Notes under the pieces: model-generated
Told to the model about the DNA's origin: nothing
Seen by the model: the letters and a program-made list of their open reading frames with translations, nothing else
Database searches by the model: none
Program-made: the position numbers and the translations under genes
NCBI GenBank assembly: GCA_003166335.1
Contig: PMWA01000045.1
Location: 21,571 to 49,882, forward strand
Reading direction: 5' to 3'
Source: Methanobacterium sp.
GTDB lineage: Archaea > Methanobacteriota > Methanobacteria > Methanobacteriales > Methanobacteriaceae
Length of the DNA stretch: 28,312 nt
In this document: one piece after another, positions 4,070-28,312 of the stretch
Layout: each line of letters starts with the position of its first letter
How positions within the stretch are numbered: the stretch's first letter is position 1

Positions 4070-4254
4070 ACTTCCACCATCCTCTATAAAATATACAATT
4101 ATATATATGTTCAAATATATGTTTATCTTCTAAAAACTTAAACGATTACATTAATTAATTAAATTTTTTTACACTTTTAATATTCTTCAAAAGATTTTAA
4201 GTTTTTTAAATTAATTAAAAAATTTATAAAGTTTTTTTGTTAAAAAAAAAGGCC

Positions 4255-5547
4255 ATGAATAATCAAGTAAATATGGAAACCCTTACTTTACCAATAGAAC
4301 TATTGAATATGGTAAGTAATTACTTCAAGAGGGAGAAAGAAGGAGATATAACTGCTAGATCTAGTGCTACAAAGTATTTAAAGAATTTTTTGATTGAAAC
4401 TTCTGATGGATCTTACACTTTGAAGTCAAGTGTAATTAATGGTTCATCTGAAACAATGCATACTCATCATGGTGCAGTGGAGGAATCTATCCAGAAATAT
4501 ATAGAACCATCAGGTTTAAGAGATAAACTCACTTCGAAAGATGAAATTCGTATATTAGATACTTGCAGTGGCTTAGGTTACAATGCAGCAGCTGCTCTAG
4601 ATTTATGGCAATCTATCCCTAATAATTGTAAAATTAAGTTGGATATGGTGGAAATATCCAGAGAAACTTTAGCTATCACTCTTCTAATACCTAGTCCTTT
4701 AAGAGCTTATGAAATAATTAAAAAAGCAGTGGAAGATGAATTATATCAGGAAAAATTTCTCTCATTAAGATACGAGAGAAATGAAACACCGGAAAATGTA
4801 GATATTAACATTTATTGTGAGGATGTCCGTGAACTTATAAAGAATTTATTAGAGAATAAATCATCAAAGACGGAATCAAATAAGTCCTTAATTAATGAAG
4901 ATAATGATGGAATTTATGATATCATATTTCTTGATCCCTTCAGTCCTCAATTAACCCCTGAACTTTACACTCTGGATTTCTTTAAATCTTTAAAACAGGT
5001 TATGAAAACGGATGGTCTTATTTTAACCTATACTTCAGCAGCTCCTGTTAGATCAGCGTTTATTGAAGCTGGTTTCAATGTAGGTGAGGGACCCCGATTC
5101 GGTAGGAAAAGGGGTGGCACTATAGCTTCTATTTCCACTGAATTAATCCTTAAAGACTTATTAATGGAAGATGAAAGGATGATTGCTTTAAGTGATGTGG
5201 GTGTACCTTTCAGGGATCCTCATCTTAATAGTAATAGTCAATATGTTAAGGAGAGGAGGAGTAATGAACGTGAATTATTAAGAATTAAGAAAATGAAATT
5301 TGCATCCACTGTTAAAACACCAGTATATCTTTTAGAAGATTTGGAGGATGGCAGATTAAAGCGCAGAGTCCTGAAAAATCTTCATAAAATGGGTTTTGAG
5401 GACTTAAATTCATCGGAATTCAGGTATGTGTTATGCCCACAATACCCAAAATGTATATGTGGGGAAGGATGTGAATCATTCGATAATTCACGTGAAAGAG
5501 TAAATGAAATGAGTCATCGATTACATCAAGTGATTAAAAAAAGATAA
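4255..5547 (+). CDS. MnmC/MnmD-like SAM-dependent (tRNA) methyltransferase with Cys-rich C-terminal extension
   Basis: Motifs T-x-DGSYTL, HGAVEES, SAM-binding ILDTCSGLGYN, DIIFLDPFSP..PELYT and TYTSAAPVR. The start is uncertain (TTG 4237, ATG 4255 or ATG 4273). Confidence 0.8.
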   Translation: MNNQVNMETLTLPIELLNMVSNYFKREKEGDITARSSATKYLKNFLIETSDGSYTLKSSVINGSSETMHTHHGAVEESIQKYIEPSGLRDKLTSKDEIRILDTCSGLGYNAAAALDLWQSIPNNCKIKLDMVEISRETLAITLLIPSPLRAYEIIKKAVEDELYQEKFLSLRYERNETPENVDINIYCEDVRELIKNLLENKSSKTESNKSLINEDNDGIYDIIFLDPFSPQLTPELYTLDFFKSLKQVMKTDGLILTYTSAAPVRSAFIEAGFNVGEGPRFGRKRGGTIASISTELILKDLLMEDERMIALSDVGVPFRDPHLNSNSQYVKERRSNERELLRIKKMKFASTVKTPVYLLEDLEDGRLKRRVLKNLHKMGFEDLNSSEFRYVLCPQYPKCICGEGCESFDNSRERVNEMSHRLHQVIKKR

Positions 5548-8262: not shown

Positions 8263-9018
8263 ATGGCTTTAATAGCACACATCTCCGATTTACATGTAGG
8301 CGCATTAGCATTTCATGAAGAGCTTTTAAATAAAGCTATAAATGAAATTAATGAAATGCAACCAGATGTAACTATAATAACTGGAGACATAACTGAAAAT
8401 GGATACTACATGGAATTTGAAAGAGCAGCATGGTATTTAGATAATATTGAAACACCTATGTTAGTAGTTCCCGGAAATCATGATGCTAGACATGTAGGAG
8501 ACCAGTGCTTTGGAGAATTAATTGTAAATCGTTTCGACACCTTAAAATTACATAAAAAAGGTATAAAAATAATTGGACTGGACAGTACTGAACCCGATTT
8601 AGATTATGGTAAAGTCGGTAGAACCCAACAGAAATTTATGCAGATCGAACTTGAGAAAGCTCAAAAAGATAACTTATATTCAATTATAGCCTTACATCAT
8701 CACATTATACCAGTACCTAAAACCGGCCGAGAAAGGAATGTTTTAAGTGATGCTGGAGATATACTACAATCAATAATAGAAGGAAGCGCTAATTTAGTGC
8801 TTTCAGGTCATAAGCATATGCCTCACGTATGGATAATGGGAGGTACAACATTTGCCACTGCAGGAACAGCTTCATCCCTAAAGTTAAGAGGAAAAGAATT
8901 TGCATCATATAATACTGTAGAAATAAATGAAGAAAATATTAAAATTATGTTAAGGAGTGCAAATGGGAAACATAGAATACTAGCAGAATATGAGAATAAT
9001 TGCAAGGTGATTAATTGA
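8263..9018 (+). CDS. Calcineurin-like metallophosphoesterase, Icc/CpdA (cyclic-nucleotide phosphodiesterase)-like
   Basis: All five metallophosphoesterase motifs are present: HISDLH, ITGDIT, PGNHD, LHHH and LSGHKH. IIGLDS..P....G.VG..Q is typical of CpdA-like enzymes. Confidence 0.88.
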   Translation: MALIAHISDLHVGALAFHEELLNKAINEINEMQPDVTIITGDITENGYYMEFERAAWYLDNIETPMLVVPGNHDARHVGDQCFGELIVNRFDTLKLHKKGIKIIGLDSTEPDLDYGKVGRTQQKFMQIELEKAQKDNLYSIIALHHHIIPVPKTGRERNVLSDAGDILQSIIEGSANLVLSGHKHMPHVWIMGGTTFATAGTASSLKLRGKEFASYNTVEINEENIKIMLRSANGKHRILAEYENNCKVIN

Positions 9019-10028
9019 AAGTTATGGTCGATGCATCCAATGTAGCCCATTACGGGAGGAAGAAAGATGGGAAACCTCGTTTAGATAACATCCAAAAAGC
9101 AGCGAAGGCCTTAAAAGAATTAGGATACGAGCCAATTCTAATAGCGGATGCATCATTAAGACATGAAATAGATTTCAAAGAAGATTTTAATAAGCTTTTA
9201 GACACCGATGAAATTAAACAGGTTCCCTCAGGCACCACTGCGGATCACTTCATACTAAAAATAGCTGAAGATGAAGACGCGAAAATATTATCTAATGACG
9301 TATTCAGAGAATACAATGATGAATTTCAGGATATTAGTAGCAGGAGAATACCTTATAGCTTCAAAGATGATAACATAATCATCGGAACTTCTTCTAAGCC
9401 AAAAAAAGTGAAGAATATTTTACAGAAAATATGCAGTTATACCCTATCAGAATTTGAAAATAAGGGTTATGATACTTATAAATTAAAAAAGAATAAGAAA
9501 CTGAGTGGAATAGCTGTTGCTAAAGAAGCAATTGATAGAATAACTAACGCTGATAATGATTCATCCCTTGAAGATACACTTTTGAAGATACCCTTCTTTG
9601 GTAGGTTCATGAGTTTAATGGAAGAGGATAAAACCAGTGATTTTATAATTTTCGTTTTAGTTAGCCCTAGAGATTATAGGGATGCAGTTAAAAATGCAGG
9701 TAACATAGCAGTTACTGTTGGAGATCGTTTAAAATTGGATCATGCGCCTTTAGTGGCTGTTCGAAATGATCTTTTCACTAGACCGGGTTCATTTGAAATT
9801 AATATTATTTATTCTGATGAAATATTGGAAGAATCTCCATTTAATGTAAATGTAACCATTAATGATCATGATTATGCTTTTGTTAAGAAGAATTCTCGCA
9901 ATATAGCTAGCACAGTAGCAGCAAGACTTGGCACCTGGAAATTCCCTATTGTAGCAGTTAAGCCGAGTATGCTTATGGAAAAGCCAGGACACTTTGACAT
10001 TACGTTAGAGAAGGGTGGAGAAAAATAA
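9015..10028 (+). CDS. Zc3h12a/Regnase-like NYN (PIN) ribonuclease with duplicated C-terminal domain
   Basis: N-terminal VMVDASNVAH, ADHFILKIA and KILSNDVFRE match the Regnase-type PIN motifs (IDGSNV, DDxFI, VSNDxYRD). The TTG start overlaps the upstream stop (TTGA). Confidence 0.82.
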   Translation: MKVMVDASNVAHYGRKKDGKPRLDNIQKAAKALKELGYEPILIADASLRHEIDFKEDFNKLLDTDEIKQVPSGTTADHFILKIAEDEDAKILSNDVFREYNDEFQDISSRRIPYSFKDDNIIIGTSSKPKKVKNILQKICSYTLSEFENKGYDTYKLKKNKKLSGIAVAKEAIDRITNADNDSSLEDTLLKIPFFGRFMSLMEEDKTSDFIIFVLVSPRDYRDAVKNAGNIAVTVGDRLKLDHAPLVAVRNDLFTRPGSFEINIIYSDEILEESPFNVNVTINDHDYAFVKKNSRNIASTVAARLGTWKFPIVAVKPSMLMEKPGHFDITLEKGGEK

Positions 10029-11237
10029 ATGGCTAGAGATAGGGTGCTCAGAGCTATCATAGGATTTCTAATTAGACATCAGGTTATAAGTATTGGCACT
10101 AAATATTATCCCACTAATGACCGGGAAAGAGAGTATGTGGAGATGATAAATTATACTCACACCATGCTCTTGGAGATTAAAAAAGCCAATATAACCACGG
10201 AAAACATTTTCCAAAATGTTTTAAAAGAAGTAGGTCAGGGCAATATCCCTCAAAATAGAAGATTCCTAGAATTAAAACCAGCAGAGAAGCAAGTAAATGA
10301 ATATGCTCTTTTAAGTAATATAATAATGGGAAGCGACCGCTACCTTTACCTGGAAATTTTTCAGCGGAACTGGAATATTATAAATGAATTAGCTAATTTA
10401 ATAACATCTGAAAATGGTGTAATCATTGAAAAAAGCAATAGTGAAATAGTTTCACGACTTCTATCTAAAAATGATGCTATAAGAATTGCAATTGAATTAA
10501 TAAGATTAGGAATGGATAATGAAATTGATGTGCGGGCTGCCGTGGGAATGACTGGAGCGGCTGCCATTGAAAGATCAATTAATCTTAACCGGGAAATCGG
10601 AGAAACTTCAGGTGTAGGTTTCACTAAACTTGGAGGAGAATTCTCTATAGCATTCTCCACTAAAATGACAAAACTTGAGGGATCACCTGCAATTTATGAT
10701 AGTTATCTCTTCATTGATGCTATTGATTCAACTAAATTCATAGCTGAAAATGGTAGGGATCGACTAGTTGAGATAATGAATGAGGTTAAGAATTTCATTC
10801 AATCTGATTGCAAGGGTAAAATAGAAGGTTATCGTGAGGGTGGAGATGATCTCATCGCTAATTTACCTACTAAAGATACTGCTTTAAGAGCTGGTATTGA
10901 TTCTGCGTGGCATGCTTTAAATAATGGCATTCGATTAAGGATTGGTATAGGTAAAAGCAGAAGAGAAGCTGGTGAAAGAGCCCAAATGGCTGATAACATT
11001 AAAATATGGAATAAAAGTCCAGTGATGGTGTTTGACTTAGCTGATGGGATCTATGCTTACTATATTCCCTCTGAATTTACCAGGGCAGTGGTGGATTTCC
11101 TCGCTGAGAAAACTGGAAGATTAGTTTTCATATTCATTTTTGTGTTTATAGTTACCTTGATTGGATGGAATTTAGGTTATTGGGAATTGGGTGTGTTCGC
11201 TATAATCTTAGCTTTAATCTACGCTGCTTTTAGTTAA
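10029..11237 (+). CDS. Membrane-anchored protein with tandem palm (GGDEF/class III cyclase/mCpol/GCH-III-like) domains and an intact GGDD motif
   Basis: YLFIDAIDST (D230), REGGDDL (G271-D274) and LRIGIG in the second repeat; a degenerate copy at about residues 105-185; a hydrophobic C-terminal hairpin. The CDS is clear, but the function is inferred. Confidence 0.7.
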   Translation: MARDRVLRAIIGFLIRHQVISIGTKYYPTNDREREYVEMINYTHTMLLEIKKANITTENIFQNVLKEVGQGNIPQNRRFLELKPAEKQVNEYALLSNIIMGSDRYLYLEIFQRNWNIINELANLITSENGVIIEKSNSEIVSRLLSKNDAIRIAIELIRLGMDNEIDVRAAVGMTGAAAIERSINLNREIGETSGVGFTKLGGEFSIAFSTKMTKLEGSPAIYDSYLFIDAIDSTKFIAENGRDRLVEIMNEVKNFIQSDCKGKIEGYREGGDDLIANLPTKDTALRAGIDSAWHALNNGIRLRIGIGKSRREAGERAQMADNIKIWNKSPVMVFDLADGIYAYYIPSEFTRAVVDFLAEKTGRLVFIFIFVFIVTLIGWNLGYWELGVFAIILALIYAAFS

Positions 11238-11427: not shown

Positions 11428-11730
11428 ATGAAACCTGAAACTAAAGGAAAGCTAATGGTTGCTATGGTGGTGTCTATCTTAGCTTTTGGAATTGGAACAG
11501 GCACGGTATTGGTTACAGGTTTATATCTGAATATGAGTAATCCATTTAATATGACACTTAATCAAACCAACCTAACTAATCAAACCAACCAAACTATTCC
11601 GTCAGTGCAAACAAATAACAATATAAACACTGCTCCATCCACATCATCATCAAATAATGGACAATCCCAACAAAATACTAATGACAATCAATCAACAAAT
11701 AATAATACCGGAACTGGTAATAATAAGTGA
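11428..11730 (+). CDS. Small membrane-anchored or secreted protein with Asn/Thr/Gln/Ser-rich tail
   Basis: Basic N-terminus followed by a hydrophobic helix, then a low-complexity tail with multiple N-X-S/T sequons. GAGTGA RBS upstream. Confidence 0.8.
   Translation: MKPETKGKLMVAMVVSILAFGIGTGTVLVTGLYLNMSNPFNMTLNQTNLTNQTNQTIPSVQTNNNINTAPSTSSSNNGQSQQNTNDNQSTNNNTGTGNNK
11560..11595 (+). repeat. 18-bp tandem duplication inside the CDS (NQTNLT/NQTNQT)
   Basis: AATCAAACCAACCTAACT followed by AATCAAACCAACCAAACT (one mismatch). Confidence 0.8.
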
Positions 11731-26203: not shown

Positions 26204-26413
26204 TTAAGATAGTTCTTCAACAGCTAATTCAATGTCCGACGCGTTAACAGTAACTCTTCCCGCATGCTTCGCGAGTTTAACTGCTTGAATGGCCACTTCT
26301 TCAGCCCATTGTTCTAATACTTTTTCTAAAGCTTCTTCTGCACCAGCACTGACCCTTTGTCCGCCGGCATTTTTTATTAATCTTCCTATTGGAGCTATTG
26401 GTAATTCACCCAT
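26204..26413 (-). CDS. Archaeal histone (HMf family), divergent acidic variant
   Basis: MGELPIAPIGRLIKNAG..RVS...LAKHAGR.TV...DIELA. The start is ATG 26413, behind a GTGA RBS (69 aa). Confidence 0.95.
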   Translation of the reverse strand: MGELPIAPIGRLIKNAGGQRVSAGAEEALEKVLEQWAEEVAIQAVKLAKHAGRVTVNASDIELAVEELS

Positions 26414-26448
26414 ATCAATCACTAAAATATAATTAAATAACTCCATAT

Positions 26449-27400: not shown

Positions 27401-28312
27401 TTATCCGCCTTCTTCAACTACGAATGGTCCGTCACCTAGTTCGCCGTAGTGTTGAGAGTTATATTTTGCATAATCCCATACTACCCATCCATTACCAATA
27501 TTAATCTCAACCCATCTGTGAAGGTAGTAGATACCACTTGGATTGGAAGCTTCCATAATTCGAGTTTCTATACCTTTTGCTGTTAATTGTTCATACAACC
27601 ATCCACTATCTGCCCAACAATCTCCATACCCACATTGGGCCATTACTGATGGACTGGATTGTCCTTGGACATCTGCGAATTTTGCTTCTGCTGTTCCGAT
27701 AGCATTTAATATAGATTGTACGTTAGAAGTTGTAGTGTTTGTACTAGCAGTTTTCCACGGTGTAACTGAAACGTAGTTGGGTAATCTCTGGTTTGTGTTT
27801 TGGAAGTTCAGTATTTTACTGAATGTATATATTGTGTTTTGGAAGTTAAGTATTCCGAGTGAAGTGTTTAAGGAATTGGGTGCTGTTCCTGTGGAATTAA
27901 TGGTTTTTTGAATGCTCTGCGCGAGATTGAGATAATTTGATTCAAGTATATTCCCGTTTTTAACAGTCTCTGGGGGGTCGGATGGGCTTTGCACTGTTTT
28001 AATGGTTATTGGTGTGGTTAATCCTTTGTTAATGTCCAGCAAGTTTGCTGTGATTAATTGAAGGAATTGTGGCATTGTAACTTCAGTGTTAGCGATTGTA
28101 ACGTAATTGGGTAATCTTTGGTTGGTTTGCACAAAATTAGTTACGGTGGTTGCTGCAGTGTTAATTTGCTTACTAGTGAAACTTACACTAGCGGGTGATC
28201 CAGCAGCTTTCACAGTTGATGTAGTGTTAGCTGTTGTTATTTTAGTTAGGTTTGTTACATTTGTTAAATTATGATTTGTAATGGGATTTGTTTGATTAGA
28301 AGTCCCATTTGT
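27401..28312 (-). CDS. Pseudomurein-binding-repeat protein with transglutaminase-like (Cys-His-Asp) domain; 5' end outside the window
   Basis: The frame is open to the window edge (N/T-rich linker). There are four PMBR-like units (e.g. FVQTNQRLPNYV, TMPQFLQL, FQNTNQRLPNYV), and the C-terminus has GDCWADS, LHRWVEI and GWVVWD. Confidence 0.88.
   Translation of the reverse strand, partial: TNGTSNQTNPITNHNLTNVTNLTKITTANTTSTVKAAGSPASVSFTSKQINTAATTVTNFVQTNQRLPNYVTIANTEVTMPQFLQLITANLLDINKGLTTPITIKTVQSPSDPPETVKNGNILESNYLNLAQSIQKTINSTGTAPNSLNTSLGILNFQNTIYTFSKILNFQNTNQRLPNYVSVTPWKTASTNTTTSNVQSILNAIGTAEAKFADVQGQSSPSVMAQCGYGDCWADSGWLYEQLTAKGIETRIMEASNPSGIYYLHRWVEINIGNGWVVWDYAKYNSQHYGELGDGPFVVEEGG

Follow-up and report, generated by a model that had tools for sequence, protein, structure and literature searches.

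A tandem palm-domain protein with a single intact two-metal site in Methanobacteria and Methanopyri

The window analyzed here, the whole 28,312-nucleotide stretch of a Methanobacterium sp. contig, encodes a 402-aa protein with a GGDD motif and raises the question of what kind of enzyme this protein is and to which palm-domain family, if any, it belongs. A first-pass annotation, made from the letters alone, had taken it for an internal duplication of one degenerate and one intact palm domain, that is, a single-chain pseudo-dimer that might link Cas10, the class III cyclases, and GTP cyclohydrolase III (GCH-III). Methanobacteria include the main methanogens of gut and rumen as well as a model thermophile, and a near-universal palm gene provides a concrete candidate for the synthase of a nucleotide messenger in them. 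The gene family itself has been labelled before (see below); what is new here is its anatomy and a testable mechanism.

Two palm copies in one chain

The palm gene is laid out as follows.

10029..11237, + strand: whole palm ORF (402 aa), comprising an N-terminal domain, palm copy 1, palm copy 2, and a predicted membrane hairpin
10080..10328, + strand: N-terminal alpha/beta domain, residues 18-100, with G23, T24, V37, N41, and E91 invariant
10335..10658, + strand: palm copy 1, residues 103-210, lacking the metal-binding Asp pair and the phosphate-binding loop-helix
10698..11066, + strand: palm copy 2, residues 224-346, with its two-metal site intact
10716..10718, + strand: D230, first metal-binding Asp, which opens a D-x-x-x-S-T/S motif
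10833..10850, + strand: R/K-x-G-G-D-D motif, R269-D274 (GGDD, residues 271-274, at 10839-10850)
11109..11231, + strand: two predicted transmembrane helices, residues 361-382 and 386-401, with a very short loop between them

The ORF, D230, and GGDD lie where they had been placed at first pass, and D273 follows D230 by 43 positions. The internal duplication, originally recognized by eye, is statistically real. Profile-profile comparison of residues 103-210 with residues 224-346 in hhalign, based on 70 sequences including Methanopyri, aligned the two copies over 110 columns with a probability of 97.5 (E = 5e-12), and the score of 69.85 compares with a maximum of 20.3 over 60 column shuffles. The same comparison with 66 orthologues gave a probability of 96.5 (E = 8e-10), the N-terminal domain, used as a control, stayed below 1%, and BLASTP aligned the two halves of the single protein at 29% identity over 70 aa (E = 2e-6). 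The alignments (A1 and A3) were built from a diverse subset of the 129 Methanobacteria loci (65 and 63 loci plus the query), with near-duplicates and truncated genes dropped. An AlphaFold2 model (pLDDT 87.1, pTM 0.77) has an identical order of strands and helices in both halves, each of which ends in a closing beta-hairpin (194-209 and 332-345), so that the repeat units extend over about 103-210 and 224-346; the earlier bounds of 105-185 and 226-322 had captured both copies and left out this hairpin.

The metal-binding residues are confined to copy 2, as had been noticed. Among full-length Methanobacteria sequences without duplicates, taken from the 120 homologues listed (of 881) and from loci whose ORFs exceed 370 aa, D230 and G271-D274, and hence all three of D230, D273, and D274, are invariant in 217/217, as they are in 6/6 Methanopyri sequences, and every sequence has R or K at positions 269 and 304. 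Copy 1 has E109 at the position of D230 (216/217 Methanobacteria) and T/S138-E139 at that of D273-D274 (T or S at 138 in 207/217). Among the Methanopyri, position 109 is not acidic (E109 in 0/6), E134 and E139 are each present in 4/6, and an acid stands at 138 in 2/6. The loop-helix after strand 1 binds phosphate in class III cyclases; in the hhalign alignment of 70 sequences, copy 1 is gapped for the 11-residue loop-helix that follows strand 1 in copy 2, and with this element lost, copy 1 may not hold a nucleoside triphosphate.

To call copy 1 "degenerate" nevertheless undersells its conservation, which is about that of copy 2: mean column identity is 0.72 for copy 1, 0.76 for copy 2, 0.74 for the N-terminal domain, and 0.44 for the linker. 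Residues R104, S146, K147, G173, T175, A177, A178, E181, R182, F198, G202, and E204 of copy 1 are invariant in 70/70 sequences. Several of these have twins in copy 2 (K147/K282, E181/E316, and T175/S310), and such twinned residues may be structural. An analysis of inter-domain covariation in the 217 sequences (effective number 36) gave top pairs that are not interpretable.

The proposal of a pseudo-dimer fared less evenly: the pair of one intact and one degenerate palm holds, and the two halves of the model do not superpose together on known palm pairs. When both halves are superposed together, the rmsd is 18.5-18.6 A onto Cmr2, 16.6 A onto the human soluble cyclase and the Pseudomonas two-domain cyclase, and 13.9 A onto GCH-III (Foldseek). 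The ligand-free single-chain model does not reproduce the known composite palm geometries; perhaps it captures an open conformation, or perhaps two chains together make up the functional site.

The N-terminal domain, in which the G-T after the first strand is invariant, is as conserved as the palms, and searches of PDB and Pfam profiles with it returned no family; an amphipathic-looking helix stands just before it. At the other end, the membrane hairpin suggested at first pass is supported by two hydrophobic helices in the AlphaFold2 model and alignment, with no outer sensor domain, and Table S1 of PMC11915815, in the portion available, gives one to two TMHMM helices for orthologues. For the whole protein, Pfam returned zero matches (as it did for 66 orthologues and four Methanopyri proteins), NCBIfam none near any cut-off, and a viral fold library nothing at E <= 0.001; PADLOC left the gene unmatched. 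Fused or longer forms numbered 0 among 7999 candidates of 722-2060 aa, which is weak evidence against their existence. Contigs from four RNA-library runs cover parts of the palm gene, and one spans the junction with the upstream partner gene; such contigs are no proof of transcription or of a single transcript.

Affinities with known palm families

The best profile matches of the palm protein are two small mycobacterial class III cyclases and these only, Rv1900c (E = 7e-5) and Ma1120 (E = 0.005). By fold, copy 2 matches Ma1120 (Z = 14.2, 2.3 A over 115 residues) and the mCpol OptS (Z = 13.7-13.9), followed by GGDEF, GCH-III, and Cas10 palms at Z of about 11-12; ESM Atlas adds, as a lead only, an mCpol cluster at 0.90 and GCH-III clusters at 0.88-0.90. 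The protein is nearest to the class III adenylyl cyclases by sequence, fold ties class III with mCpol, and it belongs to none of the four families with which it was compared. The kinship in fold with class III cyclases, mCpol, GGDEF, and Cas10 that had been surmised is borne out by these searches.

With Rv1900c (PDB codes 1ybt and 1ybu) and Ma1120 (4wp3 and 5d0h), the palm protein shares the palm fold (Z = 12.2-14.2), the two metal-binding Asp (D230 and D273 aligned, in copy 2 only), the D-x-x-x-S-T loop, and the R-I-G-I strand; like Ma1120, it has a basic residue at the purine-specifying position, where R/K269 (70/70) falls on K101. Class III cyclases, however, are about 40 residues longer per domain and have a single Asp where the palm protein has GGDD. 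The 13-residue dimer arm of Ma1120, which bears the second base-specifying residue (D157), is absent from both palm copies: in each, strand 4 passes to the helix in 2-3 residues, the point at which the HMM matches to copy 2 end. The class III cyclase profile PF00211 gave 0 matches in the palm protein, 66 orthologues, and four Methanopyri proteins.

This proximity suggests a stripped-down class III-type cyclase that would make 3',5'-cAMP or cGMP at one composite site, with copy 2 as C1, supplying the metals, and copy 1 as C2, serving base and transition state, by analogy with the mammalian enzymes, a reading that we consider unlikely but the strongest competitor to the one favored below. Besides the closeness of Rv1900c and Ma1120, copy 1 itself weakly matches Ma1120 (E = 0.4). 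Its E134 (68/70) also falls on the K101 position and is of the residue type found in guanylyl cyclases, although it is Ser in 2/6 Methanopyri, and its invariant A178-x3-R182 resembles A164/R168 of Ma1120, although the register of R182 on R168 was set by eye. The neighboring phosphoesterase shows some likeness to cAMP phosphodiesterases (NF008359 at E = 1e-12, well under the cut-off), and the Methanopyrus kandleri orthologue has been named a diverged adenylate cyclase (see below). cAMP has been reported in Methanothermobacter, and archaeal CYTH proteins, one of which is encoded in genome G000, appear not to be adenylyl cyclases according to the available part of PMC10249747. Against a cNMP cyclase, the missing arm deprives the protein of the second base-specifying residue, the N/H-x3-R/K signature of the last helix is found in only 1/70 sequences per copy, the invariant D274 is unnecessary for cNMP cyclases, and superposition on the two-domain cyclases leaves an rmsd of 16.6 A. 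Of 151 genomes, one was found to encode a canonical class III cyclase (L164, G103:C2:130808-131266, a 322-aa frame), and the two halves match this single one of the phylum with profile probabilities of 22.8% and 2.7%. The cNMP-binding domain was over cut-off in 0/81 genomes, which is uninformative since four archaeal controls were silent too; TrkA_C, present in 41/41 genomes, is likewise uninformative since controls have it as well, E. coli and Sulfolobus among them.

Copy 2 covers 104-108 of the 119-120 residues of mCpol/OptS of Panoptes (9mnr, 9pd0, and 9nwn) at 1.9-2.4 A, and mCpol has two catalytic Asp, as the palm protein has in D230/D273. The identity is 15-16%, and whereas mCpol is a stand-alone mobile defence gene of about 120 aa, the palm gene is a core gene of 402 aa, whose product is a tandem with one dead copy, an N-terminal domain, and a membrane hairpin. 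The mCpol profile PF18182 did not match the palm protein and was over cut-off in 0/101 genomes. In a sequence alignment, the matching helix of either copy has no standout invariant S/N to set against the base-recognizing S30/N34 that the partner palm supplies in mCpol. The hairpin motif of GGDEF diguanylate cyclases, R-x-G-G-[DE]-[DE]-F, corresponds to R/K-x-G-G-D-D in the palm protein, where L, F, I, or V follows. GGDEF cyclases carry a guanine-binding Asn/Asp motif after strand 1; the palm protein instead has D-x-x-D-S-T there, and the Pfam GGDEF profile does not match it.

Cas10 (Csm1/Cmr2) resembles the palm protein in having a degenerate palm and then a GGDD palm in one chain, but no HD domain or CRISPR context was seen at the palm gene, the neighbors of which are housekeeping genes. 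Against 25 Methanobacteria Cas10 proteins, the palm halves reached profile probabilities of at most 4.2%, and PF22335 had no match in genome G000. Palm1 of Cas10, in the accessible text of PMC11734703, keeps Asp, Ser, and Lys contacts to the NTP, which copy 1 lacks. GCH-III (MJ0145; 2qv6; PF05165) likewise has a duplicated palm and, moreover, the same direct connection from strand 4 to the helix; its C-terminal domain matches copy 2 at Z = 11.5. These points, together with the ESM Atlas clusters, would suit a GCH-III-like hydrolase or a nucleotide-binding sensor without turnover, which we regard as improbable. The palm protein differs from GCH-III in having GGDD rather than GGDN and a membrane anchor, PF05165 does not match it, its profile match to the GCH-III halves is below 2%, and the complete invariant two-metal site argues for catalysis. 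Nor is it a plain GCH-III, the outcome against which the first-pass annotation had hedged: the true enzyme with GGDN is a separate gene in 61/61 genomes (in genome G000 at G000:C110).

We infer from these profile comparisons that a trimmed class III-like palm was probably duplicated in the common ancestor of Methanobacteria and Methanopyri, apart from the duplications of Cas10 and GCH-III, because the profile match between the two halves (97.5%) is far stronger than that of either one to the halves of GCH-III (<2%) or to the palms of Cas10 (<=4.2%), as judged with shallow reference profiles. Since the duplication looks independent, a link by descent among those families, as initially proposed, is not supported.

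Phyletic distribution and gene neighborhood

The palm gene was matched in 290/301 genomes of the phylum and in 220/223 good Methanobacteria genomes, nearly always as a single gene, and the nearest named relatives of the protein are from Methanobacteriaceae. Five genomes have two or three matches, and genome G000 has one copy; the three matches in a one-contig genome (G258; best E = 3e-97) may reflect a frameshift in the gene or a misassembly. Among 1.84 billion representatives, a profile search recovered 54 matches, of which the full-length ones are one Methanobacteria representative and one Methanopyrus protein; the others are fragments or partial, as seen in the six of these that were inspected. 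The Methanopyrus cluster contains M. kandleri Q8TZ32 (AAM01324.1), named "Predicted diverged member of adenylate cyclase 3 family"; a first metagenome scan for Methanopyrus loci returned none. MK0296, the archaeal GGDEF relative discussed in the consulted part of PMC2904730, was considered as a possible member and ruled out, being Q8TYK1.

The family, which includes WP_088335150.1 (P0129), corresponds to OG0001214, "Nucleotide cyclase," of Lupo et al. 2025 (PMC11915815), where, in the accessible portion of the paper, it is paired with the NYN family OG0001213, is exclusive to pseudomurein archaea (Table S2), and is assigned with its partner to nucleic acid metabolism or signalling. The label rests on a Gene3D/SUPERFAMILY match in the Methanopyrus protein only, and that portion offers the label by itself, with no analysis of the duplication, active site, or partner domain and no activity. 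In the literature that we covered, which took in only part of the subscription papers, neither the duplication nor an activity was found described, and a search within PMC2447327 came up empty.

Restriction to pseudomurein archaea, the predicted membrane anchor, and the strong conservation of both the N-terminal domain and a copy 1 without the triphosphate loop would fit a nucleotidyltransferase in which these two domains bind a non-nucleotide acceptor (a metabolite, a membrane-located wall precursor, or a protein) to yield an NMP-conjugate. This reading is quite unlikely in our estimate: the gene lies outside the two pseudomurein synthesis clusters, its own cluster was judged probably unrelated to wall synthesis in the available text of PMC11915815, and the UDP-glutamate step already has a candidate, PMurB, in that of PMC12996149.

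Immediately upstream lie the following genes.

9015..10028, + strand: partner gene, encoding an N-terminal Zc3h12a-like NYN ribonuclease domain and a C-terminal domain; its stop abuts the palm gene start
9390..10025, + strand: partner C-terminal domain, with repeats at about 9633-9827 and 9828-10025
8263..9018, + strand: calcineurin-like metallophosphoesterase, a frequent but not constant neighbor

The partner C-terminal domain is the constant companion of the palm gene, being encoded upstream of it in 130/131 loci (many of them redundant), with the single miss at a locus that has 77 bp of flank; in 49/65 loci, the partner stop lies -8 to +3 from the palm start. This domain is itself a repeat (profile probability 97.8, 37% identity between the repeats) and folds confidently (pTM 0.81), and its identity to the Methanopyri-like loci (41-42%) exceeds that of the palm protein (27-28%), so that it is the more conserved of the two. 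No family was found for it: the best fold match has Z = 5.7, Foldseek gave zero matches at E <= 0.001, which does not prove a new fold, and ESM Atlas had no usable match. The NYN aspartates 6, 45, 77, and 95 of the partner are kept in 64/64 sequences; at the two Methanopyri-like loci (L162:7347-7982 and L163:7323-7958), the C-terminal domain is retained and the NYN domain is undetected. The phosphoesterase occurs in 26/35 diverse loci with at least 3 kb upstream and is absent from 9/35 and from both Methanopyri-like loci.

In the window, tgtA, the phosphoesterase, the NYN nuclease, and the palm gene form a run of abutting genes, which recalls a membrane-bound RNA processing unit in which the NYN domain would cut, the phosphoesterase would heal ends, and the palm would add nucleotides in the manner of Thg1. 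Weak fold matches of the partner domain to domains of RNase E and of tRNA synthetases (Z <= 5.7, E >= 0.05) point the same way but are at background level; the two Methanopyri-like loci yielded none of tgtA, NYN, and phosphoesterase, and neither fingers nor a nucleic-acid-binding domain was identified. Such a unit seems very improbable to us. The same two loci encode, two genes downstream of the palm gene and beyond one that is thiC-like, a protein (L162:10675-11742 and L163:10567-11715) whose K-L-D-G motif presumably recalls the RNA/DNA ligase nucleotidyltransferases.

A candidate messenger synthase and other genes of the window

By analogy with its relatives in fold, we tentatively favor, at somewhat short of an even chance, the view that the palm protein is anchored in the membrane and makes a di- or oligonucleotide messenger out of purine nucleotides. 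It probably descends from a class III-like palm and is likely to come closest to mCpol or Cas10 in its mode of action. The intact two-metal site, read in light of the fold family, points to nucleotidyl transfer with release of pyrophosphate, and three features favor attack by a second nucleotide over cNMP formation: a second Asp that never varies, the absence of the arm, and a compactness like that of mCpol. GGDEF, CRISPR, and Thg1 palms typically have an acidic dyad, whereas cNMP cyclases have a single acid, in the part of PMC2904730 available; the second GGDD Asp of Csm1 is among the contacts to the donor nucleotide in the corresponding part of PMC11734703; and mCpol dimers are described as synthesizing 2',3'-c-di-AMP.

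In the proposed mechanism, copy 2 would use D230/D273 and two Mg ions, with the S234-T235 loop and R304, to bind the triphosphate of a first NTP, which is probably ATP, and D274 would position the attacking ribose hydroxyl of a second nucleotide, like the second GGDD Asp in Cas10. The second nucleotide might come from copy 1 of the same chain, giving one active site that works stepwise, as in Cas10; alternatively, it might come from copy 2 of a second chain, giving two sites as in mCpol, with copy 1 and the N-terminal domain being regulatory. The pseudo-two-fold domain of the partner would then act as receptor or regulator and, in Methanobacteria, couple the signal to the NYN ribonuclease. The role would be a housekeeping one, perhaps in envelope or turgor control, and not phage defence; a core gene with a predicted membrane anchor that is confined to walled methanogens fits a housekeeping messenger. 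If this is true, the protein would be one more independent case, after Cas10 and the mammalian cyclases, of a single chain that pairs an active with an inactive palm, and the partner domain would be a new receptor or regulator.

Several observations weigh against a di- or oligonucleotide synthase. The nearest solved relatives by sequence are cNMP cyclases and not mCpol or Cas10, and Ma1120 ties with mCpol in fold; the modelled palms are far from the Cas10 pair (18.5-18.6 A); the twinned invariants of copy 1 may be structural; and E109, E134, and E139 are each missing from some or all Methanopyri. Coupling through the partner is weakened by the two Methanopyri-like loci, where NYN is undetected, and by the absence of the phosphoesterase there and in 9/35 loci.

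A bolder extension of the messenger synthase, which we think unlikely, and a shade more so than the cNMP cyclase, is that the pseudomurein archaea have their own core signalling module in place of the DAC and c-di-AMP of other Euryarchaeota. In it, a membrane-anchored single-chain palm pair, one active and one inactive and independent of Cas10 in origin, would make a cyclic dinucleotide or new messenger, and a pseudo-two-fold receptor domain of no clear known fold would sense it and control an NYN ribonuclease. DAC, the c-di-AMP synthase, turned up in 0/81 Methanobacteria genomes, the only group covered besides the controls, with three of four archaeal controls positive (M. jannaschii, H. volcanii, and M. 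acetivorans); the absence is only a correlation within one lineage.

Other genes of the window include one for a SAM-dependent methyltransferase of PF05430 whose C-terminal tail is rich in Cys (4237-5547); it lies upstream of tgtA in many loci. After the palm gene comes a 100-aa ORF (11428-11730) with a hydrophobic N-terminal stretch and an Asn/Thr-rich tail, empty in Pfam; it recurs in many Methanobacterium- and Methanothermobacter-like loci and was not found in most of the distant ones. Farther downstream, on the - strand, are an ORF that we take to be archaeal histone-like (26204-26446) and one with repeats that, we presume, recall pseudomurein-binding repeats (27401-28312).
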